This document shows, piece after piece, positions 10,963-44,252 of a stretch of 64,000 nucleotides of DNA. The stretch is from assembly GCA_038087875.1 (NCBI GenBank), contig CM075989.1, positions 4,650,001 through 4,714,000 on the forward strand, written 5' to 3'. The position numbers were made by a program, and so were the translations under genes. The stretch is from Malacoraja senta (lineage: Eukaryota). The notes under the pieces are model-generated. The model was not told where the DNA came from and ran no database searches. It was given only the letters and a program-made list of their open reading frames with translations. Positions within the stretch are counted from its first letter, which is position 1, and each line of letters starts with the position of its first letter.

Positions 10963-12375
10963 CCTCTGTGACAGGTCCTGATTGTAAAGAAGAGTCAATT
11001 AAATTGCTGCATCACATGGCAGAAAGTATCCCTGGGAAAATTACAGTTCTGCCAGCCTAGAGTACAGTGTCTGGGATTCCAGCTGCAGGAAGGCAGAAGG
11101 AGACTTGGAAAAGATAGAATAGAGGCAGTTGAGAATGTCCCGGTCCCGAAGACAAAGAAGGACATTCTCTCCAACTTAGGCATGGTGGGTTACTGCAGAC
11201 AATGGATCCATGACTACAGGGAACTAGATGCAGCATTGCGTTCAGCCACCCTGCAGACGGAGCCCTCCAGAGTAGAATGGGCTGCAGAAAGGGACCAGGC
11301 ATTTAGAAATCGAAAGAACGCTAGGATCACTGCTCCAGCGCTGGGATTGCCAAACTATAAAAATCCCTTTCAACTTTATGTAAATGAATTAAAGGGGTTT
11401 GCGACTGGGGTCCTGGTTCAAGAACATGGAGGGGGGAAAATGACCAGTAGCCTATTATTCTGTGTCTTTACCAGCTGTAATAAATGGCATGCCCGCCTGC
11501 TTGCCAGCTGTATCGGCAACGACTACCATGATAGGAAAATCAATCCCCATTGTTCTTGATCGCCCGTGTGTAGAGACTGTTCCTCATGCCGTGATGTTAT
11601 TATTGAACTCAGCAGCTACACAACATTTCACAGCCGCTAGAAGAACAAGATATGAAGTTAAGGTCCCACATACCAGAGCAGTTGATAAAGTCCATCATAG
11701 GAGATTAGTGGGCAAAATTAGGGCACATGGTATTGGGGGTAGAGTGCTGACATGGATAGAAAATTGGTTGGCAGACAGGAAACAAAGAGTAGGGATTAAC
11801 GGGTCCCTTTCAGAATGGCAGGCAGTGACTAGTGGGGTACCGCAAGGCTGGGTGCAATATACATCAATGATTTAGATGAATGGATTCAAAGTAGCATTAG
11901 CAAATTTGCAGATGACACAAAGCTGGGTGGCAGTGTGAACTGTGAGGAGGATGCTATGAGAATGCAGGGTGACTTGGGCAGGTTGGGTGAGTGGGCAGAT
12001 GCATGGCGGGTGCAGTTTAATGTGGATAAATGTGAGGTTATCCACTTTGGTAGCAAAAACAGGAAGGCAGATTACTATCTAAATGGTGTCAAGTTGGGAA
12101 AAGGAGGAGCACAACGGGATCTGGGGGTCCTTGTACACCAGTCTATGAAAGTAAGCATGCAGGTACAGCAGGCAGTGAAGAAAGCGAATGGCGTGTTGGC
12201 CTTCATAACCAGGGGAGTTGAGTATAGTCCGCAAAGAGGTCCTTCTGCAGTTGTACAGGAACCTAGTGAGACCACACATGGAGTACTGTGTGCAGTTTTG
12301 GTCTCCAAATTTGAGAAAGGACATTCTTGCTATTGAGGGAGTGAGGTTTACAAGGTTAATTCCCGGGATGGCGGG

Positions 12376-12898
12376 TGTGAGGAAGGGGTTAATAGGTATA
12401 GTTGATTTAGACAAGAACCCATTGTCTAGTACGCAGTATAGTAGGGAGTATAGAAGGGAGGATAGGGGGAGTGAAGAACAAGTACAGATGGTGACTTTTC
12501 AAGGATGAGAACAGAGAAGATAAGGAAACCGTCCATTCTGGAATTAGGGCAAGGGTCATGAAAAACTCTCTATGCGCTTGCGTAATGAGATAAATGAATA
12601 TTGCAAACACGCCCATCATGACAAGATCTCATTTAAATGTACATGCGATGTATGATCTGGGAGGCACCAGGGGCGGTACCTGTAGAGTGTGCACCTCAGT
12701 GCTCTGATTTGACAAGAGCCCGAAGGGGAGGAGTAAATGTAACAAATGTAAATGATGTGAATAAGAGAGAGATGAATTCCATCCCTCGGGGTGTCTTGAC
12801 AGGGGAGACACCCAACTCTGCAGACTTGCTAATAAATAAACTTGTTTCTCTACATTCTCTACGCATCGTGAGTGTTCTTTCACAATTTGCGCCTGACA
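12376..12898 (+). repeat. ERV-B 5' LTR (523 bp)
   Basis: TGTGAGG...CTGACA. AATAAA at 12831-12840. Near-identical to the 3' LTR apart from indels. Confidence 0.95.
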
Positions 12899-12901
12899 GC
12901 C

Positions 12902-12919
12902 TGGGGGCTCGTCCGGGAT
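12902..12919 (+). promoter_or_regulatory. Primer binding site, tRNA-Pro
   Basis: TGGGGGCTCGTCCGGGAT is the canonical 18-nt tRNA-Pro PBS (as in MLV), 3 nt after the LTR. Confidence 0.95.
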
Positions 12920-15900
12920 AGGAGGAGTGAATGTAAGGTATGGACACCGGGAGGCAGTAGAGGACTTAATCTTAGTACCTCAGGCTGGTATAAATTTAAT
13001 GGGCAGAGATTTACAAATACAATTGGGGATAGGCACAGCACCGGTAGAGGGAAGGATAGTGGTCCAGTTGTATACTCTAAGAGAGGCGGATGAGCAAAGA
13101 ATTAATGACCAAGTATGGGCCAAGGAAGGAAACAGAGGAGGTTTGCAAATACCCCCTCTACAGATAGTATTAAAGGACGGTGCCGACATAGTACGAGTAA
13201 GACAATACCCCATTTCGACCGAGGGACAAAAAGGCTTACAACCAATCATTGAGAATTTATTGAAGGACGGGGTATTGGAACCATGTATGTCCCCCTACAA
13301 TACTCCGATCCTACCAGTCAGATAGACCGACGGGACGTCTAGACTCGTACAGGACTTAAGGGAATTGAACAAGGTAGTCCGAGCCCGACACCCGGTAGTC
13401 CCTAACCCTTACACCATCATGGGACGGATACCCCCAAGCCACAAATGGTTTAGTGTGGTAGATTTAAAGGACGCTTTCTGGAGTTGCCCGCTGGCAACAG
13501 AAAGTAGAGACTTATTTGCCTTTGAGTGGGAAAACCCTAACACCGGGTGAAAGCAACAATTCCGGTGGGCGGTGCTCCCTCAAGGTTTTATAGTCTCTAC
13601 TTTCTGTTGCCAGTGGACAACTCCAGAAAGCGTCCTTTAAATCTACCACACTAAACCATTTGTGGCTTGGGGGTATCCGTCCCATGATGGTGTAAGGGTT
13701 AGGTACTACTGGGTGTCGGGCTCGGACTACCTTGTTCAATTCCCTTAAGTCCTGTACGAGTCTAAACGTCCCGTCGGTCTTTCTGACTGGTAGGATCGGA
13801 GTATTGTAGGGGGACATACATGGTTCCAATACCCCGTCCTTCAATAAATTCTCAATGATTGGTTGTAAGCCTTTTTGTCCCTCGGTCGAAATGGGGTATT
13901 GTCTTACTCGTACTATGTCGGCACCGTCCTTTAATACTATCTGTAGAGGGGGTATTTGCAAACCTCCTCTGTTTCCTTCCTTGGCCCATACTTGGTCATT
14001 AATTCTTTGCTCATCCGCCTCTCTTAGAGTATACAACTGGACCACTATCCGTCCCTCTACCGGTGCTGTGCCTATCCCCAATTTTATTTGTAAATCTCTG
14101 CCCATTAAATTTATACCAGCCTGAGGTACTAAGATTAAGTCCTCTACTGCCTCCCGGTGTCCATACCTTACATTTACTCCTCCTATCTCGGGAGCTACCA
14201 TTACAGTCCCCCCTTTTACAGAATCACCCAATTTATTCGGCCAAATTTTAGAGCAGGTACTGGAGGATTTCCCAGGTCACGGGGAAACGCAACTATTACA
14301 GTACGTGGACCTTCTCTTGTCAGGAGAGAGGGAAGAAGAAGTAAGGGACGCCACGATAGTCCTGTTAAACGTCTTGGGGAAGAAGGGGTTAAGGGTGTCC
14401 CGTAACAAGCTTCAATTTGTGGAACAGGAGGTAAAATATCTAGGACACCTGATAAGCGGAGGAAAGAGACGAATAAACCCCGAAAGGATAGCTGGAATCA
14501 CGGGAGTTCCACTCCCGAGGAATAAGAAAGAAATCCGGAAATTCCTGGGGTTGATAGGATACTGTCGATTGTGGATAGATGATTATGCCCGACGGGTGAA
14601 ATTCCTGTATGATAAATTGGGAGAAGAAAAAGACAAGGTTAAGTGGACCCCTGGAGGTGGAATTTGGGAAATTAAAGCACAGTCTGATCACTGCTCCCGT
14701 GTTGGCCCTACCCTCGTTAGAACAACCTTTCCATCTCTTCGTAAATTCAGACAAGGGGGTGGCACTAGGGGTACTTACCCAGAAGAGAGGGGGGAACCGA
14801 CAGCCGGTGGCCTTCCTCTCAAAAATATTAGATCCAGTCTCCAGGGGATGGCCGGGATGCATACAAGCGGTAGCAGCCACTGCAATATTGGTGGAGGAGA
14901 GTAGAAAATTAACCTTTGGAGGAGCTCTGGTTGTTTCTACGCCACACACGGTGAGAACCATACTCACTCAGAAATCCAACAGATGGTTAACGGACTCTAG
15001 AATTTTAAAGTACGAGGCCATCCTGATGGAAAAAGACGATTTGAGTATAATTACGGATAAGAACCTTAACCCGTCCCAATTCCTGTATCCAGCAGAAAAA
15101 CCGGGCGACGAGGGAGAGGACCCAGTACACTGCTGTAGTGAAATAATAGATTTACAGACAAAAAGTAGAGAAGACTTGGAAGAACAACCTCTGGCTGAGG
15201 GCAGCCGGTGGTTTATAGATGGGTCCTCCAGGTGTATAGATGGAAAAAGACATAGTGGGTACGGTATAGTGAACGGGGAAACTATGGAGGAAATTGAAAG
15301 CGGTAGGCTGCCTGGTAGTTGGTCAGCCCAATCTTGTGAAATATATGCATTAATGAGAGCTTTGGAACTATTGGAGGGGAAGGAAGGAACAGTGTATACC
15401 GATTCAAAATACGCCTTTGGGGTAGTACACACCTTTGGGAAAATCTGGAAAGAGCGAGGAATGATAACAGCTCGAGGGAAAGAATTAGCGCATGAGCAAT
15501 TGATAGGACAGACACTGGAGGCCTTGCAGAAACCAGAAAGAATAGCCATAGCACATGTGGCAGGGCATCAAAAGGGTAACACCCTAGAGGCCAGAGGAAA
15601 TAGGGCAGCGGATGAGGTTGCAAAAAGAGCAGCCACAGAACAGACAGTAGAAATGATGTCACTAATACCTTTAAGGGAACAAGAGGAAAAGATACCAATC
15701 TTTAGTGAGAAAGAGCAGGAACACATGAGGGAAATGGGAGCCCGGCTTACCCCAAATGGGAAATGGTGGACACCGGATGGAAAGCAGCTATTGAACAAAG
15801 AAATTATAAGGGAGTTATTAGGGAGGCTGCACGGGCAAAGCCATTGGGGAACCCAAGCCCTCTGTGACACCCTCCTCAGAACCTACGCTTGCCGTGGGAT

Positions 15901-16856
15901 GTATACCATGGCCAAACAAGTCATAGGGGGCTGTGTAATATGTCAGCGAATTAACAAGAAAATCATGAGAGCAGTCCCGGGAGGAGGACAACCATTGGCA
16001 ATTAGGCCCTTCCAAAGAATACAGATAGATTTCACCGAGTTGCCCCGGGTACAAAGATGGAAGTACCTGTTAGTGGTAGTGGACCATTTCACTAGATGGG
16101 TAGAGGCATTCCCCACAGCAACTGCCACCTCACAGGCGGTAGCCAAGGTATTATTGGAGCAAATTATACCCAGATATGGGATTGTGGAAACAATAGACTC
16201 GGATAGAGGGACCCATTTTGCCTCCAAGACACATAAAATGATATGCGAAGCACTAGGAATTGAATGGAAATTGCATACACCGTGGCATCCCCAGAGCTCC
16301 GGAAAGGTGGAGAGAATGAATGGCACCTTGAAGACCCAAATCACCAAGGAAACGACTCCCCTGGACTAAGTGCCTTCCGATAGCCTTGTTGAGAATCCGC
16401 ACGGCACCTCGGAAAGACATAGAGGTATCACCATATGAAATGTTATTCGGGCTCCCATACTTAGGGGAGATAGAAGGGGTCCCAACAATACAAGGGAATG
16501 ATGTATTCCTAAGGAACTATTTACTGGCAGTGTCCCAATCTCTTGCAGAACTAAAAATTAAAGCATTGCTGGCCCAGAGCCCACCACTGGACTTCCCGAT
16601 ACACTCAGTCAAGGCTGGGGACTGGGTACTAATAAAAACGTGGAAAGAAGAAAAGCTGCAACCTAAGTGGACTGGACCCTACCTGGTGTTACTAATCACC
16701 GAGACAGCAGTACGAACAAAAGAGAAAGGGTGGACACACGCAAGCCGATTTAAGGGTCCTGTGGAGGCCCCACCAGACAATATCAGCCCGTGGACTGTGC
16801 GAAAAGGGAAGGAACCATTGACTTTGGTATTCACCAAGACCCCGCACGGAAAATGA
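12920..16856 (+). pseudogene. pol: ERV-B pro-pol (partial protease, RT, RNase H, integrase), disrupted
   Basis: NLMGRDL, PYNTPILPV, VDLKDAFW, LPQGF|TESP, FIDGS, YTDSKYAFG, IQIDF, DSDRGTHF and ERMNGTLK. Stops at 13323 and 13548, an inverted insert at 13591-14213, and frameshifts near 14655 and 16350. Confidence 0.93.
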
Positions 16857-18863
16857 AGACTTCATGCTGGTGGATCATGTGTTGGGTGGTTACCCAACTC
16901 GTGAGTAACATAACATGTATAAAAATCACAATACCACAAAATAGAAAGTCCACCACCATCCCATTTAATGTATGTAAAGGAAAATGGTGGTGCGGCTATA
17001 GAATGTATGTATGCACCCATCCCTGTAAAGATTGGCATGCGGTGTTTACTTCATCAAAATATGGGTGGCATCGAACCACCTATCAAACTGATAGGTGGAA
17101 AGTATATAAAAACCCAAATGAGGGATTGCCAGGACGCGTATATGTAAGCATACAGAGTGTGCAAATGCAGGAAAGTGGTAGGTATTGGATATGTGCAGAA
17201 AGAAGAGGGAAGGACGCATGCCTGAGGTTTGAGATAGAAGTGAAGCGGGGCGGGAATATGGTAAAATATGAGGATGGGAGGGAAAGATTCCAGATAGATG
17301 ACAGTCAGAGTAGGAATCCCTGGGCAACACCAGCACCACCGGTAGTAAGAAATGTCACCACGGAAAATGAGCCTAAGGATTTGAAGATAATGATAGTAGC
17401 AGGAGAAACAGAATTAAGGCAGTTATATGAGGAGGGAATACCTACAGGAGGAAAGGGAGCCAACGCCTGGCTTGCCTGGATGATGTACACGGCCAGGAGT
17501 ATGCAACACACCAATTGCTAGGTACACAAAAATGCTGGAGAAACTCAGCGGGTGCAGCAGCATCTATGGAGCGAAGGAAACAGGTAACGTTTCGGGCCGA
17601 AACCCTTCTTCAGACACCAATTGCTACGCCTGCGCCGGAGCTAAGCCTCAGCTGGTTCCAGTACCATTTCCCTTGAATTGGGATAGAACACCTGGGGCTA
17701 TGCCATGTATACTACAGCTATTCACGAATCCCATCCTACCAAAGGATGCGACCTGCCAGAGTTATCATTACCTATTTCCGGCTAGCAACAACAATACAAA
17801 GGGCCGAAGGACAGACCCACGACCTCCTCCATTTAGAACTCCCCTTGGGGAGGAGGGATTTGAGTGCTATACCAGATATAACCCAGATGGACAGAAAATG
17901 GGGGAGGTGCTGAACTGCAATCAGACGTATAACATAACGGCTGAGGAACAGGGGCCGCTGTTCAAAAGCTCCTGGCTGAGAAAGCAGATAGTCAGTAGAG
18001 CCGATGTCTGGTGGTGGTGCGGGGAGAATACCCTGTGGCCCCGGTTACCAGGGTCATGGACGGGAACCTGTACCCTCACACAACTGATGATGCCCTTCAC
18101 CATAGCAGTAGAACATGCTGTAGAACTCAATGAAGGAAGCTGACGACAGAAGAGAGGGGTGAGAGGATCATTCGACACACACATATATATAGATGCGATA
18201 GGGGTGCCAAGAGGGGTACCCGATGAATTCAAAGCCAGAAACCAGATAGCTGCGGGTTTTGAGTCCATGCTCTTCTGGTGGTCCACAATTAATAAAAATG
18301 TGGACTGGATCAACTACCTATACTACAATCAACAACGCTTTATAAATTACACTCGAGATGCGGTTGAAGGATTAGCGGAACAACTGACAGATACCAGCCT
18401 AATGGCCTGGCAAAATCGTATGGCCTTAGACAGGCTACTGGCTGAGAAGGGAGGGGTGTGTGTAATGTTTGGGGAACAATGTTGCACCTCCATCCCCAAC
18501 AACACTGCTCCTGATGGGTCAGTATCGAGAGCCCTAGCAGGTCTCACCTCCCTGTCTATCGAATTGGCCGAGAACTCCGGATTAGACACCTCCTGGACCG
18601 GGTTTCTAGACTCCTGGTTTGGGAAATGGAAGCACATCTTTACCGCAGCCCTAACATCAGTGGTAGTTATGATGGGGTTGCTGTGCCTATTTGGATGTTG
18701 TATCATTCCCTGCGTACGGGGGTTGTCTCAGCGATTGATAGAGACAGCCCTGACCAAGAATGACGCCGCCATGATGGCCTTTAAAACACAGTATGACCAG
18801 CGAGAGGAAGATAAAGAGGTGAAGATTCTGCTACTAGCATTAGAGAAGGGGCAGATAGTCTAA
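16853..18863 (+). pseudogene. env: ERV-B gamma-type envelope (SU-TM), two lesions
   Basis: Signal peptide MKTSCWWIMC, CYAC (CxxC), furin site RQKR, ISD WQNRMALDRLLAEKGGVC, CX6CC and a TM helix. Broken by a 93-bp insert at 17521-17613 and a TGA at 18141-18143. Confidence 0.93.
17521..17613 (-). mobile_element. Penelope-derived short element with hammerhead motif, inserted in env
   Basis: 13-bp TSD ACACCAATTGCTA (17508-17520 and 17614-17626). Minus strand CTGAAGAAGGGTTTCGGCCCGAAACGTT at 17613-17586. Confidence 0.88.
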
Positions 18864-18899
18864 ATCAAAGATTACAGTAGCAAAAGTAAAAGTGTGGAT

Positions 18900-19312
18900 T
18901 GTGAGGAAGGGGTTAATAGGTATAGTTGATTTAGACAAGAACCCATTGTCTAGTAGGGAGTATAGAAGGGAGGATAGGGGGAGTGAAGAACAAGTACAGA
19001 TGGTGACTTTTAAAGGATGAGAACAGAGAAGATAAGGAGACCGTCCATTCTGGAATTAGGGTAAGGGTCATGAAAAACTCTCTATGCGCTTGCGTAATGA
19101 GATAAATGAATATTGCAAACACGCCCATCATGACAAGATGTCTCATTTAAATGTACATGCGATGTATGATCTGGGAGGCACCAGGGGCGGTACCTGTAGA
19201 GTGTGCACCTCAGTGCTCTGATTTGACAAGAGCCCGAAGGGGAGGAGTAAATGTAACAAATGTAAAATGATGTGAATAAGAGAGAGTGTTCTTTCACAAT
19301 TTGCGCCTGACA
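18900..19312 (+). repeat. ERV-B 3' LTR (413 bp, internally deleted)
   Basis: Matches the 5' LTR but lacks a 12-bp segment and a 101-bp segment. Confidence 0.95.
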
Positions 19313-21081
19313 GCGGGACTATCATATGCTGAGAGAATGGAATGACTGGGCTTGTATACTCTGGAATTTAGAAGGATGAGAAGGAATCTTATTGAAACAT
19401 ATGATTATTAAGGGTTTGGACACACTAGCGGCAGGAAACATGTTCCCGATGTTGGGGGCGTCCAGAACCAGGGGCCATGGTTTAAGAATAAGGGGTAAGC
19501 CATTTAGAACGGAGATGAGGAAACTTTTTCACACAGAGAGTTGGGAGTCTGTGGAATTCTCTGCCTCAGAGGGCGGTGGAGGCCGGTTCTCTGGATACTT
19601 TCAAGAGAGAGCTAGGTAGGGCTCTTAAAGGTAGTGGAGTCACGGGATATGGGGAGAAGGCAGGACCGGGGTACTGATTGTGGATGATCAGCCATGATCG
19701 CATTGAATGGCGGTGCTGGCTCGAAGGGCTGAATGACCTACTCCTGCACCTATTGTCTATTATCCTTTTTATCACATCCGAACTGAACTTACTGTATCAA
19801 CGATCGCCTGATATAAACCCAGCTACTTTTGTACCACTGCCAGAAGAAGGATGTGACCGTGATTGTCTATTGCTTGTAGAATCCCCAGCTGGACTTAGAG
19901 TCATTCGATTGAAAATCCTGACCTGGTACTATTTACTGATGGCTCTACACACCGACCGAGCGATGACAGATTATTAGCAGGATATGTGGTGGTCATGCCA
20001 CACCAAGTGCTGGAGGTATACGCTTTACCCTGTTGAACGTCTGCTCAGACAGCTGAGCTGCATGCCCCGACTCGTGCCTGCACATTGGCAAAGGATAAAA
20101 GTGTTAATATCTACACGGATTCTCGCCATGCATTTGGGGTTGTACTTGACTTTGGGCAGTTATGGGAAAAATAGAGGATTTGTCACATCAACAGGAAAGA
20201 CTATTAAACATGAGAAGCTGGTCTTAAAGTTTCAGGATGCTATCCAATTGCCACGGCAAATGAGTTATTAAATGTTTTCAAAGGGAAACTGGTCAGCTGC
20301 TTATGTAGCCAAACAGATTGCCCTCAGGCAAACCCCGCAATTGCAAGCAGCTAAAATTAAGTCTGCAGCACATAGAAAGCTCCCGGTTAGCATTGAAGTA
20401 GCCCAGTTACAGGATGCCCAGAGCCTAGCATCATTCCAGCAAAAGAACTCCTGGAGCAGAGCAGGGTGTTATCAAGACCCTATTGTCTGGGTCCACCCTG
20501 ATGGTCGGGTAGTTTGCCCCAGGAGCCTATTTTTGCCCCAGTGCCGCCTAGCCCATGGACAGGCTCACATGGGAAAAGGGTGGGGGTGGGGGGGAGTGGC
20601 ACACGCATTGTCCCAGCAATGATATGCATCAGGTATATCAGTCATAATTGATAAAGTTGCAAGAACATGTCTGGTGCATCAACAAAATAATAGAGGGAAG
20701 ACGCCTGCAAATTGTGATCACTTACCACAACCTGAAATGCCTTTTGAGAATTTGCAAATTGATTTTGTACAAATGCCCGCAGCAAAGGGTTTTCAGTACA
20801 TCCTGGTCATAATTGATATGTTCTCCAGATAGGTGGAAGTACATCCCACAAGGAGAGATGATGCAAGGACGGTAGTCAATATTTTAATGAAAGAAATAAT
20901 ACCTAGATTGGGGATACCCATGGGAATAAACAGTGAGAGAGGAACTCATTTCATCAGTAAATTTGTTCAGAACTTGTCGAAGGCTATAGGGTTCAGTGGA
21001 AATTACACATACCAGATCAACCGCAGTCCTCAAGGATGGTGGAAAGAGTAAATGGGGAACTAAATGCTACTTTGGCTAAAG

Positions 21082-22089
21082 TATGCCAGCAAAATATATA
21101 TATATATTCGAAAAACCGGCAATAAGAACTAATGCAAAACTCCATTGTGTTACAGCAAAGGGTGTTAGTCTCTGGAATAACTGCCATGATGAGCTGAAAA
21201 AATGTAAGACTCTATTCAAACTAAAAACACTTTTCAGAAACAAAAGATTGAATGGTTATGAGCTGGACCAGTGATTTTCTTTTCTGTTTGGTTATTTCTT
21301 GTTTGTGGACTGTTCAACAGATTTTGGGTCCATTTGTTCCCATTATTTTGTTTTTCCATGAAAATGTATAGAAAATAAGAGGGGGTAGGACCAGAAACGT
21401 TTTCGAACTTCTTCTTACCCCTTTTGAACATGAACGATATTCGGGGCCGACTTCGGGGCTGTGGTGGCGTTGCGACCCGACTTCCGACCCGACTTCGGAG
21501 CCTCGGAGGCTCGGCGAGGGCCAGTGGACGACATCGTCGGGAGCTCGCAGGTCACAGGTTGGTGACCTGTTTTTCCGTAGCTCCCGCAATAACAGCTGCG
21601 TCCGCTGGACTGGAGGGCGGCAGCTTCGGCAGCTTCGACCGCCCTGGGCCGCGGAGTTTGAACCGGCCCGTTCGGATTCAGCCGCGGGACTTACTTACCA
21701 TCACCCGGCGGGGTCACAACATCGGAGCCCTGGATCGCCTCAGCGCAGAGGGAGAGCAAGGAGGGAAGAGACATGGACTTTGGGACTTTTTGCCTTCCAT
21801 CACAGTGAGGAGGTGCCTGGTGGACTCACTGTGGTGGATGTTAAACTGTGTTGAGTGTGTATTTTTGTTATTTATTCTATGTTATGACTGCAGGCTAAAC
21901 CATTTCGTAGCACTGAAAAGTGCAATGACAATAAATTGAATCAAAATCAAAAAAATTGTATTATTTTAGTTACTTATTTGTTTGTTTTCCTTTGTGTTTT
22001 CTTTTCTTTTTATTGCTTAAAAGTTTATTTGTGTTTTTTTTTTTTAACATGTTCAATAAATAAGAACAAATAAAAAAAATTAAAAAAAA
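21082..22089 (+). mobile_element. LINE 3' end with poly(A), carrying a nested GC-rich non-autonomous element (about 21428-21950)
   Basis: RTNAKLHCVTAKGVSLWNNC resembles a CR1/L2-group C-terminus. AATAAA and A-tail. The nested element ends in a Rex1-like tail, GCAATGACAATAAATTGAATC. Confidence 0.55.
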
Positions 22090-22995
22090 GGTTGTTGTGG
22101 CCAGACAACATGCCCATAGTGATGTATGCCCAGAGAAATCAGAAAAACAGAAACACGGACCTCATGAGACATTGATGGCAGCAGGAACCCGATCCTCGAT
22201 GACTCCTGAGAAGGTAGCCCTGGCACAGGTCCTTCCGGCAGAAGGAAATATGCGCCCGTTTAAACCAGGAGATCACGTTTATGTGCCATCAACAAACAAA
22301 GATTCTTTCTCCTCTAGGGTGGAAAGGATTATATTTGGTGCTGCCAACAACATGTTCACAGTAAAAGGAAAAGGAAAACCCGATTGGGTACATGCCACCA
22401 GATGTAAGCTGCATCACTCAGACGGAACCCTCGAGGAGAAGGAAACGCAAGAACCGTAACATTTTGTAGTGATAAAAAAAAGAGTACAAATGTAGACATA
22501 TTCTTTATTAACTATCTTTGTATATATGGAATCATAGAGGATATGAGGGTGAAGAGAGACATCTAGATTTACAAGAAACAGGATGAAGGTAGAAATTATA
22601 ATATGAAATTGAACTAACAACTTTCACACAGTGACCTCGCAGCTGAAAGAAAAACAGGTTTCCTTATCCGATTATCTGTTGGGTTTGTGCCCATATCCCT
22701 ACTTCGCGAGCTCAAGGACTGGTTCCAACCAAATTATCAAGGAGGGAACCGTGGAAGAAAATATTAATATCCTTTCTTACTTAATTTTGATTGGAATTGA
22801 ACAAGGTAACAAAAGGGTGTTTGGATGTGACAATTGGCATCTCTCGTTGACCTGGTGTAGAAGAGGTTCGTGGGTATCGGCAAAGTAAGATTAGACATAT
22901 GACCTCTTGTCTAGGAATGTGTTGAAGGGTGGATGGTAAATGTAAACATGAAATAGTAGACGGAGATAAGGAAGCTTGTTTCTCTCAGCAGTGTG

Positions 22996-23286
22996 CTACA
23001 GTAGACCACCCGATCCCCCTACCCCTACAGTAGACCACCCGATCCCCCTACCCCTACAGTAGACCACCCGATCCCCCTACCCCTACAGTAGACCATCCGA
23101 TCCCCCCTACCCCTACAGTAGACCACCCAATCCCCCTACCCCTACAGTAGACCACCCAATCCCCCTACCCCTACAGTAGACCATCCGATCCCCCTACCCC
23201 TACAGTAGACCACCCGATCCCCCTACCCCTACAGTAGACCATCCGATCCCCCTACCCCTACAGTAGATCACCCGCTCCCACTACCG
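22996..23286. repeat. 29-bp minisatellite, about 10 copies
   Basis: Unit CTACAGTAGACCACCCGATCCCCCTACCC, head-to-tail with no spacers. Confidence 0.95.
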
Positions 23287-23424
23287 CTAATAGCATAGAT
23301 GCGTTACAGTAAATGGGGGGCTTACGATTGGCTCGGAGAGGGGATGGTGGTGCAGTCCGCCTAAAAGGTGAGATAGAATAATGTCAAGATGCTCGTATTG
23401 TGTTTGACTTGTATTAACCATCCA

Positions 23425-24260: not shown

Positions 24261-26422
24261 CACATTTCATTTAGATTAATTTAGTTTATTGTCCAGTGAA
24301 AAACATTTTAGTTGCATACCATCCAGAGGGCGGAAAGACTACACATGATTGAAATCAAGCTGCCCACAGTGTATAGACACAAGATCAACGAGAATAATGT
24401 TTAGTGCAAGATAAAGTCCTGTAAAGTCCGATTAAAGATAGACTGAGGGTCTCCAATGAGGTATATGGTGGTTACAGTTGGCATCATCATCATTGAAAAC
24501 ATCAGCCTTACTATGCTGTGTACGACCGTGATCGCAACTTCTACTGAAGTGCGGACGGCCGTTGGCTCGCTAGATGCTCACCCGCCCTTTGACAGGTCTT
24601 GTTCTTGGTCCTGCTGGGGGTCCACAGCCCCCTCCTCACCTGGCAAACCAGCTGGGGGAGACGGTTTAGTCGCCGACTATCCGACCATGGAGCAGGTAGC
24701 ACGGGATTACATGGTACCCGAGGTGGGGGGGAACTCCCCCCGACCTGACCTGAAACCTACAGTTAGAGTTCAGTTTATTGTCACGTTTACCAAGGTTCAG
24801 TGAAAAGATTGACACAAAATGCTGGAGTAACTCAGCGGGACAGGCAGCATCTCTGGAGAGAAGGAATGGGTGATGTTTCCGGCTGAGACCCTTCTTCAGC
24901 TGAAAAGCTTTTGTTGCGTGTTATCCAGTCAGCAGAAAGACAATACATGATTACAATCGAGCCATTCTTATGGTAGATCAGGACCCATCTCTAGTTGGTG
25001 ATGGTTCTACTCTTCACTCCATATCTGACATCCCTTTGTCTCCTTTTCAGCTCTAGCCTTTGTCATTTCACCAATCCAACAATCAAACCGTTCCTCATCT
25101 GTATCCACCTATCACTTGCCAGGCTTTGTACCGCCCCATCCTTTCATCCAGCTTTGCCCCCCCTCCACTATAATCAGTCTGAAGAAGGGTGATGACCTGA
25201 AACGTTCCCTATCCATGTCCTCCAGAGAAGCTGCCTGACCCGTTGAGTTACTCCAACACTTTGTGTTTTATTCAGGCAATTATTCACTCTCGAAACAGAC
25301 TTATTTAGCAAACATTGTGGGAAGATGACGTTGAGATCATTCAGAACTAGTTTAATTCAGGACTGGGACAGCAGTTTAGATTAAATCAATAAATGCCATC
25401 TGTTTGAAACGCTTCACTGCAGTTCAAATACACAATGTGAAGATGAAAGTTAATTTTGACAGTAAAATTCACCATGTAAAGAATTTTACCCTTTAATAAG
25501 CCTGTCAAAATAATCAGGATTTGAATAAATAAAGACTGCAAACAATGGGCGGCTAAAAAGGTTACTTGTTATCACACACAAAAATCTCACAAAGTGCTGA
25601 AACCAGCATCGGCAGTTCCTCGTGTCTACCTTGTTATCCAAACCCGCATCTCTGCTGCACTTACCCAATAACGTTAAGATAAATCGGCAACATTAAACAA
25701 CCCTACAGTTGCATAAAAAAGCAAAAATAAAAAGGTGCAAATTCTAGAAATGTGCGATAAAGTTTGAAAATACTGGAAGTCTGTGCAAAGACGTGGTTAA
25801 AAATTAATGATTCAAACCTGAGATCGTTTGTTTTCATGGGTTTAAGTAATCTGGCCGGGCTATGTCATGATTAAATATACATTTTTATTATCCAACTCTC
25901 ATCGAGTTTGATCCGGAATAAACAGTTGCCCTGCCCACTTCCCTGACGTCTGAAGGAATTCCAGACGCTGGTTTAAACCGAAGACAGACACAAAATGTTG
26001 CAGTAACTCAGCGGGACAGGCAGCATCTCCGGGGTGAAGGGATGGGTGACGTTTCGGGTCGAGACCCTTCGTCATACTCGAGTCATCGCGACCAGAAACG
26101 TCACCCATCCCTTCACCCCGGAGATGCTGCCTGTCCCGTTGAGTATTTTGTGTCACATTTTGTAAACCAGGATCTGCAGTTTCTTCTTTCTCAACGTGAC
26201 TTATGATGAATCTGAAACTTGGGAGAAGGTGATAGGATGTTTTTACTCCAACGGAAGCAAAGTTTGTCGATATCTCTCAACAAGTGTGGTAAAGGGCTGG
26301 CAGGGATACAGTTTGATGAATGGTAGGCGAGCTGAAATAGTGACCGTGGGTATCGCTCGGTAGAATTACTAGTGTCCTGTAACGTTTTATGTTTCCAGCT
26401 TTTTCTGCTATTTTCAGTTTGG

Positions 26423-26425
<3 letters not shown>

Positions 26426-26459
<34 letters not shown>

Positions 26460-26482
26460 TGTGTGTGTGTGTCTGTGTGTGT

Positions 26483-26519
<37 letters not shown>

Positions 26520-26587
26520 TGTGTGTGTGTGTGTGTGTCTGTGTGTGTGTGTCTGTGTGTGTGTGTGTGTGTCTGTGTGTGTGTGTC

Positions 26588-26619
<32 letters not shown>

Positions 26620-26626
26620 TGTGTGC
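26426..26626. repeat. (TG)n microsatellite with TC interruptions
   Basis: Read directly. Lies about 600 bp into RHCG intron 1. Confidence 0.98.
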
Positions 26627-26789
26627 ATGTATGTTGAGAGACGATTAAAATATTTAATCAAGAGTAAAATAGGGCAGTTACTGGGGATTACTAGCGAAAA
26701 CAGAAAATAGCGGACTTCTGCAGAAAAACGTGGTTCGGGCCAATGAGTCTTCAAGGTAAGGGCAATGGGAGGAAAGACCCAAATGTGGA

Positions 26790-27744: not shown

Positions 27745-28240
27745 CCTCCATGTCTACAATGCCCTCAATGGGCTTGCCCCCCACCTACATAAAAAGTCTT
27801 CTCACCCACCACTCCACCTCCAGGCCCCTCAGATCGGCCGACTTGGGGTTGCTGAATGTCCCGCGGTCTAGGCATAAGCTCAGGGGCGACCGCGCCTTTG
27901 CGGCATCCCCCTTCCCATCAGAACTGCCCCCTCCATCGACTCTTTTAAGTCAAGACTAAAAACTTATCTATACTCCCAAGCCTTTCCTGACGTCCTCTGA
28001 GTGAGGGCTACATGTAGTTTGAATCAGTCTGAAGAAGGGTTTCGGCCTGAAATGTTGCCTATTTCCTTCGCTCCATAGATGCTGCTGCACCCACTGAGTT
28101 TCTCCAGCATTTTTGTGTACCTTATGTATGTAGTTTGTTTTGTTTGTGCTATTCTTATAACAAGTGTAAAGCACTTTGGCCAACCAGAGTTGTTTTTTAA
28201 ATGTGCTATATAAATAAATGTGACTTGACTTGACTTGACG
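27745..28240 (+). mobile_element. L2-clade LINE 3' fragment (with Penelope-HHR insert at 28021-28122)
   Basis: SRPLRSADLGLLNVPRSRHKLRGDRAFA. TGTAAAGCACTTTG...AAATGTGCTATATAAATAAA stem-loop tail followed by (GACTT)n. Confidence 0.85.
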
Positions 28241-31621: not shown

Positions 31622-34600
31622 ATGATTTATGAAGGAAAGTATTGGAATGTGAAAATTTTGGCACTGGTAACTGGAGAAGCAGGAACTGCAGAGTATGTTA
31701 AATTACCCTTAGACTTATGGAAACGAGTTTTAGAAGTTGCTCCACACATTACAAGGAAGGTGAATTTTCCAGCAAGTGCGAAAGACTTGGGAGCAATGGT
31801 ACAGAAAGAAATTGATCTGGCAGATCCGAATGTATATGAAGAACAAAACTTGTCTAATCAATGTACTGTTGAGTTTTATCAGACCCCGAGGACAGTTGTT
31901 GCCCAGCTACGCCAGCATCTGGGGAGTGAGGAATGTGAGTATGTGGACCAGCAAGTATGGGCAGAAAACACAACTCACGTTGGATGTGTTCGCATTGATC
32001 CCATCCAGGTAGCTCTCCAGAAAGGGGTGACACTGCCTTTGATACAACAGGACCCATTAAAGCAACAGGCAATTCCAAGTACAGACAAGCTGATTCGGGG
32101 ATTACAAGACATCTTAGTGAAGTGCTAGTCTATTTCCAACACACCAATCCTTGCAGTGCCCAAGGCAGGGGAAAGAGGGCCAGTACAGGTTAGTCCAGGA
32201 TTTAAGATCAGTCAATACAGTAGTAGAACTGCTCCATGCCTTGGTGCCAAATCCGGCTCATATTCTAGCTTTGACTCCAGCGGAAGCTAAGATCTTTTCC
32301 ATTGTAGACCTGCAACATGCCTTATTCTCATTACCTCTGCACAAGAACAGCCAGTATCTATTTGCCTTTACTTACAGGGGACAACAATATACATGGACAA
32401 GGCTACCGCAGAAATTTATTAAATCGCCCACCTTGTTTTCTCGATGTCTTCAAGAACAGTTAAGCACTTTAAGTTTTAAACGGAAATCCACTTTCGTACG
32501 GTATGTGTAGATGAGCAGAGCAATCGTGAGAACACTGCTTAATTATTGAATCATCTGGCAAATTTAGGATATGTGGTCTCTCAGTATAAAGTATTGATGG
32601 CTCAACAAAAATTAAAGTTTCTAGGAGTAGTAATTTAGGCTACAGAGAGGTTTAGAAAAGAGCAGACTGGAACCAATTTGCGAATATCCTATTCCAAAAG
32701 AGGCGAATCAAATGAGACAGTGGCTCGGTATGGTGAACTACTGCCGACCCTGGACCCCTAATATTGCACTAGACACCAAGGAATGTATTCCTTATGCTAG
32801 CTTAAAGGGCAAATTTCATTTGTCCAAAGAAGTTAAGGAAGCGTTTGAGAATTTGAAGAGATCTTTAATGCAGGCTCCAGCACTAGGAAGGCCACTCTAC
32901 GATAGACCCTTCCAACTTTACTGTACCATCCTGTCTGAGTGCTCGACTGCAGTCCTCACCCAAAAACACGAGGATAAGCACAGACCAGTGGCTTATTATT
33001 CATCAAAGCTCGACCCAGTAGCAAGGGGACACCCACTATGCACCCAGATCCTAACAGCAATCTATAATACTCTGCAGTCTGATGCAAACCGGACCTTACA
33101 GCAAGAAATAGTAGTGTACAGTTCCCATTCGGTGGCAGCCTTGTTGGGACAGCTTCAAACTCAGCATCTGACAATGGCTCGTCAAAATAAATACAAAATT
33201 TATCCATTGAACAATCTAAAACTCCAATTTAGACACTGTACTACTTTTAATCTGGCATCTTTCCTCATTTCACCTCCAGAGGAACAGTCAGAAGCAGGAC
33301 GACAGTTATTCATAATTGAAGAAGAAACATCTGTAAGGGAGGATCTAAAAGATGCTCCTATAGAAGACCCTGACATGGCACTATACGTAGATGGGAGTGC
33401 ATCCATTGGGCCCCAGGGAGAGAGATTTTCTGTGAAAGCTATTTTAGACCAGGATGGGACAGCATAGAGGCAGCTGCTTTTGAATCTCCCTATTCAGCAC
33501 AATAGGCTGAACTGTTTGCTTTGATCAGACCATGCATTGTTGGGAAAGATTTAAGGGTGAACATATATACAGATTCTAGATATGCATTCGGAGTGGTACA
33601 TGACTTTGGACAACTATGGAGGAGTAGAGGATTCCTAACCTCAGCAGGAACTCAAATATCTCATAAGCAATTGGTGACTGATTTATTAAAGGCTCTGATG
33701 CTACCGAGACATCAGTGATGAAGTGTAGCGCTCACACAAAGGGACAGACCCCGATAGACATAAGTAATCGTTCTGCTGATCAAGCAGCAAAGGAAGTATC
33801 CCAGGAACGCAAAGTGGTGGAGCCAAGAATGATGAGGCAGATAAAAAGTTCAGGTAACAAGTCTCCCTCGGAAAAGCCAATGCCAACCATCCAGGAAATT
33901 ATTAAGTTGCAGGAGGAAGCTTCTGAAGGAGATATACGATTATGGAAACAGCTTGGATGTACAATAGATTGCATGTCGGGATTGTGGGTTACTTTGGCAG
34001 GGCAGACTTGTATGACAGATCCTCTTGCAGTTTGGGTTGTGGAGTGTATACATTTTGTGACTCACTGTGGTGCAAGAGCAATTGTTGATGCTCTTTCAGC
34101 TACTTGGTGGCAACCAAGATTACAAACTTTGGCCCAGAAAGTGAGTAGCGGCTGTATCATTTGTCAGAAGTTTAGTCCTGGAAAAGGAATAGGTTGTGAA
34201 GAAGGGAAGACACCTTTGCCCATGGGTCCTTTTGAAACTCTACAGATGGATTATATTGAATAGAGAAATGCCAGGGATACAGATATGTACTTGTAATTGT
34301 CGATGTATTCAGCAGATGGATTGAGGCCTATCCAACACTTGATAACAAAGCGGCTACTGTGCTTATGAGAGAAATATTCCTAGATTCGGTATCCCAATTC
34401 GGCTTAGTTTTGACAATGGTCCTTATTTTATTGGCCAAATTAATAAAGAGTTCTGTGAACAGCTGGGCATCCAGCAGCAACTACACTGTGCTTATCGACC
34501 ACAGGCTGCTGGACGTAGAAAGGAATATCAGACCACGATAACCATATTAGCTAAATTGAAGGCGGAGACAGGAATTGTTTCAGATGCGTGTCATGCCTGC

Positions 34601-36207
34601 AGGGAAATCGAGATTGAGCCCAGCTGAAATTGACCACTTGGACAACAAAAACTCATATGTCAGGCTGTTATTCATTGATTACAGCTCGGCATTTAATACA
34701 ATCATCCCCTCCAAGCTGGTTACCAAACTCACAGTACTGGGTTTCTGCGCATCCCTCTGCAATTGGATCCTCGACTTCCTCATTCACAGGCCACAGTCTG
34801 TTCGTATTGGTAGAAATGTGTCAGACTCGATAACAATCAGCATGGGAGCACCTCAAGGCTGCGTGCTCAGCCCCCTGCTGTACTCACTCTATACTCATGA
34901 CTGCGTAGCCGGTCATAGTGCAAACTCCATCATCAAGTTCGCTGACGACACCACTGTTGTGGGACGTATCACTGATGGGGATGAGTCAGAGTATAGAAGA
35001 GAGATCGAGCGACTGTCCATATGGTGCCAGCACAATAACCTGGCCCTCAACACCAGCAAAACCAAGGACCTGACTCTGGACTTTCGAAGGAGTAGGATGG
35101 GGACCCACAGTCCCATTTATATGGTTGAAAGGGTCAAGAGCTTCAAATTCCTGGGCGTGCACATCTCTGAAGATCTTTCCTGGTCCGAGAACACTGATGC
35201 AATTATTAAGAAAGCGCATCAGCGCCTCTACCTCCTGAGAAGATTACGGAGAGTCGGTTTGTCAAGGAGGACTTTCTCTAACTTCTACAGGTGCACAGTA
35301 GAGAGCATCGTGGCTTGGTTCGGCAACTTGAGCGCCCTGGAGAGGAAAAGACTACAAAAAGTAGTAAACACTGCCCAGCCCATCATCGGCTCTGACCTCC
35401 CTTCCATCGAGGGGATCTATCGCAGTCGCTGCCTCAAAAAGGCTGGCAGCATCATCAAGGACCCACACCATCCTGGCCACACAATCATCTCCCTACTACC
35501 TTCAGGTAGAAGGTACAGGAGCCTGAAGACTGCAAGGACCAGGTTCAGGAATAGCTACTTCCCCACAGCCATCAGGCTATTAAACTTGGCTCGGACAAAA
35601 CTCTGAACATTAATAGCCCATTATCTGTTATTTGCACTTTATCAGTTTATTTATTCATGTGTGTATATACGTATATAATGGTATATGGACACACTGATCT
35701 GTTTTGTAGTCAATGCCTACTATGTTCTGTTGTGCTGAAGCAAAGCAAGAATTTCATTGTCCTATCAGGGACACATGACAATAAACTCTCTTGAATCTCT
35801 TGAATCTTGAATCTTGAATTGTTTATGGACGTCCTTTGAAAACCCCTTGGAACCAAAATGCCATAAAAGGTGTAAGCTTCCATCACATGACTACGGAGAT
35901 GACTGATTATGTTCTGGCCTTGAATCGAGCACTAAGGGATTTGCATTCTATGGTGCAAGCAGCATATAGTGAATTACCTCTTTTGGTTTCTTCCATTAAA
36001 GTCAAGCCTGGTGATTATGTACTAGTGAAGAATTGGGTAAGGAAAGGTTTGGAGGATCGGTGGGAGGGACCTTACCAGGTTTTCCTGACAACTCCAGCAG
36101 TGGTTAAAGTAGAAGGAAAGAATGTGTGGATTCTTCTTCACCATTGTAAGATTATTAGTGGGAGAATAAGCTGCTCACTTGTTTTCGGCAAGGAATTTCT
36201 TTGGTAA
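31622..36207 (+). pseudogene. pol: ERV-C pol, fragmented
   Basis: RT, RNase H and integrase motifs across several frames. SPAEI|VYGRPLKTPW rejoins across the Rex1 insert. Confidence 0.88.
34633..35816 (+). mobile_element. 5'-truncated Rex1/Babar LINE inserted in ERV-C integrase
   Basis: [27 protein letters not shown] and KFADD. (CTTGAAT)n tail. Apparent AATTG TSD. Confidence 0.9.
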
Positions 36208-39730: not shown

Positions 39731-39914
39731 ATATTGCATTGGGGAATGGGTTGCGTTGGGGGGACCAGGCCTCCCATGTGACTGGGACCCAACGGGTCCA
39801 ACTTAGTCTAGTTTGAGATTATAGCTGTCCAATTCAAAGACAAGAGTGCTAAAAGCTGAGCTGCAATTGGCATAAATTTGGAAATAGTGGGGAAATATTG
39901 ACATCAAGATAGTT

Positions 39915-41091
39915 TCAACAATTACAAATAAAATATAAACTCGGAAATAATCAATATTTTAAATATTTTCAAATATGTGACTATTTGAAAAAATATACAA
40001 AAGATCATCATAATAACCCAGCAGATGTACTGGATGAGGCAATGCAGATAAAAGCGGAATCAGCAAACTTAATATCATATTTGTATAATATTATCTTAAA
40101 TGTACAAATACCATCTACGGAGGGTATCAGAAGAGACTGGGAACAAGAGTTAGCTATTAAAATTTCAAAGGAAAGTTGGAATGAATACTTATTAAAAGTG
40201 CATAAATGCTCGATTAATGTAAGACACACTTTAATACAATTTAAAATTTTACATAGATTATATTATTCGAAAACTAAAATTCATAAAATTTTCCCAAATG
40301 TATCATCTATTTGTGATAAATGTCAATCCCAAGAAGCTACTATAGCGCACTCATTCGTTTCTTGTACAAAAATTCAAAAATCTTGGAATGAAATTTTTGA
40401 AATCTTTACAAAGTTATTTAAAACAAGACTGATACCCAAAGCAGAATGGATTATCTTCGGTATAACGGAAGATGGTCCAGAACTAAATGTGTTTCAAAAG
40501 AAACTAATGGACTATGGGTTAATAACTGGAAAAAAGCTAATTCTAAAATTTTGGAAGAAGGCTCCAATACCAACTATAAATATGTGGATTTCAAATATGT
40601 TTGAAACATTACACCTAGAAGAGATAAGACTCCTCCTAGCAGGTAAACCAGATCACTTCCACCTAACGTGGTCTGCATTTATAGAATTATTACAAACATA
40701 GGGTGCAAAAGTACTTTAAAAAAAATTGAGGTCAGGTAAGGGGGGATGATAGTTGAAGAGTTGGTATGTCCCATTTACGTAATGCTCATAAAAATATTTG
40801 TTTCTCTCTTTTTCCTCTTTCTCTCTCTCTTTCTTTCCTAGGGTCTATTTCTTAACTCTTTTTCTTTTGTTTTTAATTTTGCTCTTATAGGGTCTTCGTC
40901 CTTTTTTGTTGTCACATTTCCTACACTTTCACTTTTTCCTTCACTTTCTTCTTTCTTTCAATCTTTTCCTTTTCTAGTGTAAAAAATAAATGGAGTACAT
41001 TAATTGTAAGAAGATATAAATGACAAGTACTAATGTATGTGGTTGTAATGTAATGTACTTCTAATAAAATAAAAATTAAAAAAAAAAAAAA
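39915..41091 (+). mobile_element. 5'-truncated L1-clade LINE
   Basis: ORF2 C-terminus (QFKILHRLYY, CDKC...HSFVSC), 3' UTR, AATAAA and poly(A). TSD AAGATAGTT (39906-39914 and 41092-41100). Confidence 0.93.
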
Positions 41092-42023: not shown

Positions 42024-44252
42024 TGTGGAAGTCACCCCACACATTAGTACTAAACTAACACCTGTTGAGATTATAAATGGGTGACCATTGCATACTCCTT
42101 GGGGCTCATCTATAGAATGGAAGTTAGTCTTGATTTACATGCCCTCAGTGATGAATTAATTGCGTACGCACACAAATTAACCCGAACTTTGTCAGTTTTA
42201 CAATCACAGGTATTGGAGACGCAGGAACCGCTACCGGCTGACCATAACGATGAATACATACAACCAGGAGAATACGTGCTGATAAGAAATTGGGATCGAA
42301 GGAAACTTGGACCACGGTGGAAGGGGCCTTTCCAAGTATTACTGACTACACCTACAGCAGTAAAGGTTGAGGATCATCCTCGTTGGATACATCTAACCGA
42401 TTGCAAAAGAATTGGTAAAGGAAAGAAGAACAATGACTCTCCTCAGCATCCTGGGAATGGCCTGGACTAATACCTTTGTGGCCATGAGCTTTGAGTTTGC
42501 TCGAAGGTGGAATGGTAGTAACTGTTGGGTGTCCACCTACATTCCCCACAACAGTGGGGGAGGCATACCATTGGTACCGATATCCCTAAACCGGGCTGAA
42601 GTTATGGCAGTATACTGCTTTCACAATGGAACTTCTGCTAGCAGGTGGAGAGAGAACACAAGAAGGACAAATGGTGGGGAAATTGTGTCGAACGACTTTA
42701 AAGGATGGTACACTCCCCCATTTGAATCAGGTTGGAAGAAAGATGAGACCAAAAGTTGGAAAATTCCCCGAATGAAACTAGCAAGCAATCCCCGCATCTC
42801 TGTAAATGGCACATGTCATTGTAACGACAAAGGAAAAGGAGTGTATTTGGGAAACAGTTCTTGCATTTCATACCTCTTATTCTCTATTATGAGACCACCA
42901 CGACCAGTAAATGGAACAGACTTTGTATGTGGATCATGGGCATACCCTTGGCTGCCAGGGATGCCACCAGGAGACGACTCCACTTTTGACATGAGGTTGG
43001 GTAAGAACAACAACTGGAGAGGATGCTGCTATCTGGCTTATGTCATTCCCCACATGCGTATGGTGCAACAACTAACTGAGTTATCCCTTCCCTTAAGAAC
43101 AAGATGAGGCATATCAGAATCAGAACGATTACCTTCCCATTCTGGGGGACTGCTCGTGCCTCTCTAGAATTGATCAATATGGCCTCCGCCATGGAGACGT
43201 TGGCAAATGCAACCGCTAGTGCCTTAACAGATGTAAATAAGGCCATGACGTCTATTACAGCAGAGATGGTTGCCATCCGCACTATGGCCTTACAAAATCG
43301 CATAGCATTGGACTTTATCTTGGCAGAAAAAGGAGGCACCTGTGCTATCATAAACTGTGAGTGTTGCACTTATATCCCCGATAAGAGTACCAATATCACC
43401 GACCTTGCTGCCCACATCTCCCAAGAAATTGAGAAAATCCATAAGGTTGGAAGTGAACTGCATGGGTACAACAAAGGGAGTGGAAACTGGTGGCCATTCA
43501 ATTGGTTAGGTGGACTTTGGGGTACTATATCACACTATGGCTCTATCATTTTATTAATCATTGCTCTAATTTTGATTGTTAATTGCTTGCGACCATTATG
43601 TACCTACCAGGGATTGTGAATGTTATCATAAACTGACAAAGAGGAAGGAATGTGGGTTAAAAAGATTTAAACTTTCAAAATGGATTCCGCTGAAACTGAC
43701 AGGCTTTCACCTTTTTCTATTAAATTGCAAAGCCAGCAAAAAAAACACTAAACCTTGTTTTCAGTACATTAACAAGGCCAGCAGACTGTTGATGTTCCCC
43801 TTTCCAATAACATAAGAGAGATAGCAAGCACAGCTTCACGAATGTCTCCTCTATAATATAAACATTAGAGAGAATTCAGACTCCCTTGTTCGATAAGATT
43901 ATGATGTGCGTCATAACTAGAAAAAAACAAAATGCTTGTTCTGCAGAAATATAACATATAACCATATATGGCTAACTCTTCCTCTGTCAGAAGAACCTGT
44001 CAATCTTGTCAATCTTAAGAAGCAAGAGGCTGTACTATGCCTTGTAGATAAGGTATTGCTGAATCATCGATTATTAGGGTATATATACATGTACTGAGAT
44101 AATTGTCCCTTTGTGTGGGACTTCTCTGTTTAGTCTGTGATCAGCATACTGTAAAGAGTTTTTACCACACCCGCCTGGCGAAATAAAGATTTTACTGCTT
44201 ATACTGATTTTATTTGCGTTTCTGTCTGTTTAAGAATATTTGGACCACAACA
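42024..44252 (+). mobile_element. ERV-D: collapsed provirus (integrase C-terminus, env, 3' LTR 43651-44252)
   Basis: WKGPFQVLLTTPTAVKV. env from ATG 42433. PPT AAAGAGGAAGGAA before TGTGGG. AATAAA near 44182. Apparent GACC TSD. Confidence 0.82.
42433..43619 (+). pseudogene. env: ERV-D gamma-type env, frameshifted near 43105
   Basis: NCWVS (degenerate CWxC), ISD LQNRIALDFILAEKGGTC, CAIINCECC and a hydrophobic TM segment. Confidence 0.88.

Follow-up and report, generated by a model that had tools for sequence, protein, structure and literature searches.

In a 64,000-nt stretch of the skate Malacoraja senta genome (contig CM075989.1 of assembly GCA_038087875.1, positions 4,650,001 to 4,714,000 of the forward strand; hereafter the window, with positions counted from its first nucleotide), a defective provirus at 12376–19312 on the plus strand has its primer-binding site (PBS) fused directly to the middle of protease, while an inverted copy of part of the same element retains a site resembling the PBS, together with the protease sequence that originally surrounded it. 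The provirus contains three irregular junctions: the PBS-protease fusion (J0), the point at which the sequence folds back on itself (J1), and the point at which the reversed stretch ends (J2). Its outer ends are those of a normal integration, and the two arms of its palindrome have aged equally with its long terminal repeats (LTRs). We consider it probable that one faulty round of reverse transcription, later fixed in the germ line, made both the deletion at J0 and the inversion.

The PBS (TGGGGGCTCGTCCGGGAT, 18 nt, 12902–12919, plus strand) starts 3 nt past the CA of the 5′ LTR and is abutted by AGGAGGAG, which begins at 12920 and opens a forward arm (12920–13590, plus strand) composed of the C-terminal half of protease and the start of reverse transcriptase (RT), with a premature stop at 13323–13325. 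A sequence-only reading of this DNA had proposed that the PBS is joined directly to mid-protease, and our comparison with related proteins agrees: in 13 of the 16 relatives examined, a selection from 116 protein matches, the catalytic D[TS]G motif lies 35–41 residues upstream of the junction point. J0 thus falls mid-protease, and the leader, gag and catalytic D[TS]G are gone from the element. The loss of gag, also claimed by that reading, was borne out, as the gag-bearing relatives P0016, P0096 and P0107 gave no gag match anywhere in the element. One relative carries 567 residues upstream of the point equivalent to J0, indicating that at least about 1.7 kb of coding sequence, together with the leader, is missing.

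The PBS was the sole match to itself with up to four mismatches on either strand of the whole window. Among 88 viral-contig loci matching its last 15 nt, 24 carried the identical 18-mer, and in 23 of these 24 it sat 2 bases after a CA, which is the placement expected of a retroviral PBS. The spacer between LTR and PBS in the skate element (12899–12901) has 3 bases, against 2 in those 23 loci. The description of this site as a perfect tRNA-Pro PBS held only in part: the 18-nt PBS is present, and we take it to be of the tRNA-Pro type, an identity that the search for a primer tRNA did not establish, with ARAGORN finding no tRNA in the 58 loci scanned of the 88 and an Rfam scan of 12300–13100 identifying no primer tRNA. 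Moloney murine leukemia virus (M-MLV) uses tRNA-Pro as primer (PMC8599865).

The crossover at J0 could be placed closely. The last base attributable to the PBS only is 12916, and the AGGAGG at 12920 agrees with the donor context in the inverted copy. In one contig of run X1 the PBS is followed by non-protease sequence starting with C (a single contig, slightly out of register). Taken together, the inverted-copy context and the contigs of runs X4, X8 and X1 confine the crossover to the GAT at 12917–12919, the last 3 nt of the PBS. Plus-strand strong-stop DNA terminates after 18 nt of tRNA (PMC8599865), so J0 coincides with the expected end of the strong-stop intermediate. No extra tRNA-derived bases are present there, the base after the PBS being already protease, as in the inverted copy. 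The left break of the deletion therefore lies at the 3′ end of the 18-nt PBS, and the acceptor resembles that same 3′ end.

This resemblance can be examined because the inverted copy retains the acceptor, TGGTAGCTCCCGAGAT, at 14200–14185 on the minus strand, followed by AGGAGG just as after the PBS; the earlier observation that the original protease context is preserved there was correct. Aligned with a 2-nt bulge, the look-alike shares 13 of 18 positions with the PBS and ends at the same base, as had been proposed, and its duplex with the PBS has a predicted energy of −11.2 kcal/mol, against −27.4 kcal/mol for the true PBS. By our main 3′-anchored score it ranked 2nd of 5,349 remaining internal sites, under five alternative schemes 2nd to 15th of the same 5,349, and among the 97 sites ending in GAT 2nd; with unanchored scoring, 23 sites paired as well as the look-alike. 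Judged by these rankings, the likeness of the donor site to the PBS exceeds chance.

The look-alike is not the best match available. A higher-scoring one, with 7 terminal bases identical, lies unused at 14852–14858 in the RNase H-like region, and we rejected the idea that the landing site was picked simply as the best match. That the better site was passed over suggests that position, and not match quality alone, determined where the transfer landed. Other copies of the family might be broken at the 14858 look-alike. In relatives from two other organisms (two contigs of X4 and one of X8), the look-alike at 14185–14200 is intact inside an unbroken protease, the X4 contigs differing from it at one of the bases shown. 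A family that lacked the look-alike at the breakpoint would have spoken against the sequence-only reading; it is present in both organisms.

The inverted copy of protease-RT (13591–14213, minus strand) is 623 nt long; it begins at the equivalent of 13512 and, read backwards, extends 29 nt upstream beyond J0, with a six-G run at its end. At J1 (13590–13592) the forward RT sequence halts after a TTTTA (13586–13590, plus strand), the point where the forward strand leaves RT, and turns back 78 nt upstream. The reversed stretch comes to its end at J2 (14213/14214), where RT is picked up again with nothing lost, at a second copy of the same TTTTA (14214–14218, plus strand), such that the fold-back copy returns to its point of departure. 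The continuity of RT across J2 is also seen in protein P0002, of which residues 28–266 and then 263–407 are matched. Contigs of X4 and X8 run straight through this point of departure and return, with loose ends behind 13590 in both. Homology at the two junctions is slight (1–2 nt at J1 and 0–1 nt at J2); a 6-nt microhomology, TTTTAC, was considered for J2 and rejected, as the X4 and X8 contigs assign the A run to the RT side. We also rejected the duplicated TTTTA as the mark of an insertion made by a LINE (long interspersed nuclear element) or an integrase, given that the copy begins 78 nt from its own template.

The arms are separated by a 79-nt spacer (13513–13591, plus strand) that can form a weak stem-loop closed by 13519/13585, and the palindrome axis (13512/13592) coincides with the axis of this natural stem. 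The stem is of ordinary strength (z −0.25 against shuffles, with 51 of 640 windows pairing equally well), and on this basis we rejected the spacer as an unusually stable hairpin. At its far end the inverted copy keeps 29 nt of protease from upstream of J0 that the forward arm lacks. The template of the inverted copy must then still have had unbroken protease upstream, and the reach of the copy to just 29 nt past the break suggests that deletion and inversion were probably one event. A fold-back on the deleted strand alone was ruled out, since it would have copied the PBS and not the look-alike.

Divergence within the element is compatible with a common age. Between the LTRs we counted 3 differences in 410 aligned bases, besides 4 indels, and between the arms 9 in 593 (Fisher p 0.38), with 95% ranges of 0.15–2.1% for the LTRs and 0.7–2.9% for the arms. 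With contigs of organism A as reference, the forward arm has 4 differences of its own and the inverted arm 5, with 2 more common to both, the five inverted-arm sites having been deduced from the difference counts of three contigs. From these counts the arms appear to derive from one template and to match each other, and roughly the LTRs, in age, and they are no younger than the LTR pair. None of the 9 arm differences is an A-to-G change in the RNA sense, though the arms hold 314 A. In an avian retrovirus carrying an inverted repeat, nearly half of the adenosines were changed (PMC12925331); set beside that case, the zero count suggests that the hairpin of the skate element probably never passed through packaged RNA.

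In the single round of reverse transcription that we favor, the minus strand would have got about 29 nt beyond the look-alike's end before stopping in protease at the G run, and no complement of the true PBS would have been made, since the minus strand ended early. Strong-stop DNA would then have taken the look-alike beside the minus-strand stop and not the better site at 14858. Plus-strand synthesis would have halted at the T run of 13586–13590 and folded back on the weak stem, in an order of events that we infer, using as template either the truncated minus strand, a plus-strand piece from the interior or the second packaged RNA, and the reversed stretch would have rejoined the same T run. 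Both LTR ends would then have integrated normally, with host repair probably completing the mismatched middle. The product has no leader and therefore should not be packaged again.

Pausing at G and T runs is consistent with the pause preferences of RT, an argument to which we give little weight, as 11% of positions lie near G runs and 5% near T runs. General background on pausing and on rare non-homologous switches is available (PMC3187697). RT encloses 24 bp of hybrid (PMC12115494), and the 29 nt from the end of the inverted copy to J0 is close to this length. The sequence-only reading had likewise invoked a plus-strand strong-stop mis-jump, which remains the best account of J0, given a crossover in the last 3 nt of the PBS and a look-alike beyond chance; it is unproven, as a minus-strand switch would yield the same junction. 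As an account of the element it was also incomplete, having overlooked the end of the inverted copy just 29 nt upstream of the break, the return to the point of departure, the age of the arms and the lack of A-to-G changes.

Several points weigh against a single faulty round. It needs three irregular jumps, and yet the integration was clean. Two of these jumps, J1 and J2, had almost no homology to guide them, and non-homologous recombination is at least 1000-fold rarer than homologous recombination (PMC3187697). An intact plus strand, such as that of an integrated provirus, would be the most straightforward substrate for the fold-back at J1, and the stem on which it would have turned is no stronger than its shuffles. 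Extra tRNA bases, diagnostic in the cases from HIV-1 (human immunodeficiency virus type 1) discussed below, are absent from J0. The comparison of arm and LTR age is weak, with broad 95% ranges, and further deletions at microhomologies, of 101 and 12 bp, have affected the 3′ LTR, such that later deletions may occur here. Finally, the 1-in-100 estimate given in the next paragraph depends on a pol stand-in and a single scoring scheme.

Alternatively, host repair may have acted after integration: a full-length provirus would have broken at 13590, its end would have turned back and used its own intact strand as template for 623 nt before rejoining, and, in the same burst or later, a homology-guided deletion near the palindrome base would have joined the PBS to the look-alike. 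We regard this as unlikely, while acknowledging that an intact plus strand is the simplest fold-back template, that J1 lies on the natural stem axis, that near-blunt joins with 4–5 nt of duplication look like end-joining scars, that long palindromes destabilize their flanks, and that two microhomology deletions in the 3′ LTR and a SINE (short interspersed nuclear element) in env show the locus to have been altered since integration. What host repair explains poorly is the position of the left breakpoint, within the last 3 nt of the PBS. For a homology-guided deletion starting no more than 30 positions from where the inverted arm ends, we counted 91 equally good partners per 2.8 kb (with pol standing in for the missing leader-gag, and under one scoring scheme), so that a host deletion would hit the PBS end about 1 time in 100. 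Moreover, divergence between the arms is no lower than between the LTRs, requiring the inversion to follow closely upon integration, and the 3′ LTR deletions need not be late, asymmetric LTRs having been found in 26 of 88 HIV-1 proviruses (PMC9278108). Quite unlikely, in our view, is a switch by the minus strand, in which the nascent strand stalled in protease and moved to the PBS RNA at its 3′ end by way of the shared GAT and the broader resemblance. It yields an identical J0, and sequence alone does not tell the strands apart; among HIV-1 deletions, 334 of 395 were attributed to minus-strand switches, and some plus-strand ones are indistinguishable from these (PMC12657518). Such a switch leaves unexplained the 29 nt of the inverted copy beyond the junction. 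It also has to contend with the PBS RNA being paired with the tRNA primer until minus-strand synthesis ends.

Two generations could also be supposed, with a gag-bearing parent first gaining the inverted duplication and its packaged RNA, carrying a 620-bp hairpin, then failing at the hairpin base and giving rise to the mis-jump. This would account for the location of J0 at the stem base, and the arms (1.5%) are nominally more diverged than the LTRs (0.7%), a difference that is not significant (p 0.38). The look-alike, however, would have been locked within the hairpin, and the arms have none of the A-to-G changes seen in the avian retrovirus (PMC12925331), leaving this sequence of events very unlikely. 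We see only a slim chance that the structure is an artefact of assembly or library preparation, from a fold-back chimeric read or from merged copies of the family. The window was matched to 24 listed sequencing runs, none of them an RNA dataset sharing window words; four runs were compared over 12345–13600, using contigs only, and among the 32 pieces listed (of 4,479) none spanned J0 and no strand-changing joint was recorded, as an artefact would predict. Palindromes of 600 bp are also known from long-read and amplification errors. These runs share at most 52% of sampled words with the window (the second best 49%) and may be of other species. The arms, moreover, show 9 differences, of which comparison with relatives assigns 4 to one arm and 5 to the other, and the inverted arm holds 29 nt of genuine protease lacking in the forward arm. 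RT resumes with nothing lost, and the target duplication matches on both sides.

The 3′ LTR (18900–19312, plus strand), with TG...CA ends, is shorter than the 5′ LTR (12376–12898, plus strand; 523 bp, TG...CA ends, AATAAA at 12831) by segments of 101 bp and 12 bp. The 101-bp segment is equivalent to about 12769–12869 of the 5′ LTR, including the AATAAA, and is flanked by GAG microhomologies; its loss probably takes all of R. As contigs of organism A span this segment, the loss occurred in the 3′ LTR. It may reflect either a later deletion or a first jump that went wrong, in which case the second genome would have been the source of the 5′ LTR. Asymmetric LTRs can arise in reverse transcription (PMC9278108), and for this reason the 3′ LTR deletions need not be late.

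A more far-reaching reading would take the element as the complete fossil of a derailed reverse transcription whose LTR-driven hairpin RNA is now silencing the family. In this reading, a faulty first jump would have left the 3′ LTR without an R region; strong-stop DNA from a second packaged genome would have landed at the look-alike by the stalled minus-strand end; and two self-primed, hairpin-ended halves, with one good LTR end each, would have been co-integrated and repaired by the host. The intact 5′ LTR would drive a putative RNA with a 593-bp, 98.5% paired protease-RT stem, which could feed small RNAs against a family that is still abundant, and this role may be why the insertion was kept. 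Taken jointly, these proposals are doubtful, and we put them forward as speculation.

The integration itself was ordinary, as indicated by the TG...CA ends and the duplicated GCGGG at 12371–12375 (inside a host LINE) and 19313–19317, both on the plus strand. Uninterrupted LINE contigs of X4 and X8 carry a single GCGGG, after which the LINE goes on, and the GCGGG pair is therefore a true 5-bp target duplication. Downstream of J2, the rest of pol (RT, RNase H and integrase; 14218–16853, plus strand) has frameshifts near 14650 and 16350, and env (16856–18863, plus strand) is broken by a piece of a host SINE (about 17520–17615) and a stop near 18141. The SINE piece is 95–97% identical to copies at 28027 and 31002 in the window. 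The 25 nt ahead of 18900, where a polypurine tract would be placed, are rich in purines but interrupted.

With paired LTRs, a PBS after the 5′ LTR, the order protease-RT-RNase H-integrase, and env, the element has the organization of a class I endogenous retrovirus (ERV). Its integrase has an MLV-type C-terminal domain (MLVIN_C), and its env a transmembrane domain and a match to TLV_coat (E 3.7e-9). Among solved structures, the RT of murine leukemia virus (MLV) was closest (E 1e-36), followed by those of foamy virus (2e-15) and HIV-1 (2e-10). Placed by these similarity ranks, the element is a defective member of the class I (gamma/epsilon-like) ERVs, and its clade, in the scheme of PMC6001957, could be Jin or Mu. 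In the protein search (116 matches, P0001–P0116), which returned no named ERV family for the element, one of the closest relatives had 68% identity over 99% of the query, and the closest named relative was a model protein of Rhinoraja longicauda (85% identity over 64% of the query), a skate, which would fit a skate or ray host; one of Hemitrygon akajei was 61% identical. Bird ERV proteins made up the majority of close protease-RT relatives, mostly at 51–63% identity, which hints at a class I lineage common to birds and rays/skates, with database bias likely. Pattern searches gave no match to the LTR-PBS end in metagenome contigs and none to the PBS-protease junction in viral contigs, while a protein-based locus search found no relatives among 153 metagenome candidates and, among 13 viral candidates, one distant relative only (36%), which was not used.

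Around the provirus, the window shows nesting at three levels, with an older, distant retroviral pol (about 11020–11660 and 19810–21110) split by the LINE and the LINE split by the provirus. Other decayed pieces of retroviral pol, with 24–47% identity to the relatives used, lie at 32160–34590, 35820–36160, 42165–42410 and 61050–62220. An AT-rich long inverted repeat (39913–41091 and 45297–46499; 813 nt at 97% plus pieces of 161 and 130 nt) has arms about 4–5 kb apart that are possibly the ends of a DNA transposon, and a second inverted pair (34632–35794 and 57900–59066) of about 1.1 kb is 95–98% identical at a distance of 22 kb. A 29-nt tandem array and a simple-repeat array are also present (22967–23310 and 26363–26664).

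The strand and timing of deletions at the second strand transfer usually have to be guessed, the donor site being lost. In the skate element 1.3 kb separates the product from its donor, and the minus-strand stop may be recorded in the end of the inverted copy. If confirmed, the element would indicate that an intermediate with several breaks can still undergo clean integration and reach the germ line of a vertebrate, and that the defect of some gag-less endogenous copies dates from their birth and not from later decay, a distinction that matters where internal deletions serve to date or order ERV copies. Coming from one dead locus, the insight concerns mechanism and is modest, unless the putative hairpin RNA is made and processed.

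Compared with known systems, the element shares with class I ERVs an MLV-like RT, MLVIN_C, TLV_coat and the PBS of retrovirus-sized viral contigs, and differs from them in lacking the gag that lies between PBS and protease. Fold-back inverted duplications made by host repair have a short spacer, an axis on an imperfect natural stem and a return to the point of departure, and the skate copy has the spacer and the return, while its axis coincides with that of a weak natural stem; unlike them, its far end lies 29 nt from a junction with the signature of reverse transcription. A literature search, with most subscription papers outside its reach, returned no endogenous provirus with both a PBS junction and a preserved donor. 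Pulsinelli and Temin are said to have described, in 1991, large deletions arising through strand-transfer errors in one round of retroviral vector replication, reportedly including a class with the left end fixed at the PBS and the right end at a short homology; that system was a vector in cell culture and not a fixed endogenous copy, and reportedly had no coupled fold-back inversion. In HIV-1, the relevant passages of Joseph et al. (2022) describe one provirus with inversions plus a deletion over 1 kb, and 4 of 88 proviruses with an intact 5′ LTR and a 3′ LTR without a poly(A) signal, a combination also present in the skate element; these passages contain no junction-level account tying an inversion to a PBS junction (PMC9278108). 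The closest parallel is the deferred second-strand transfer of Hardy et al. (2025), in which HIV-1 strong-stop DNA is transferred to a downstream minus-strand site (PMC12657518, Fig. 4e). The skate element would represent the same type of transfer, with differences from the one case of their own and 43 GenBank cases that they describe, all with 7–54 extra tRNA bases: it goes no further than base 18 of the PBS and joins a look-alike matching at 13 of 18 positions, and so is not of the read-through subtype, it is in the germ line, and its donor site survives in the inverted copy (PMC12657518). The mechanism of mis-transfer is already known from HIV-1 and vectors, and in the skate element it is most likely part of a three-junction event.

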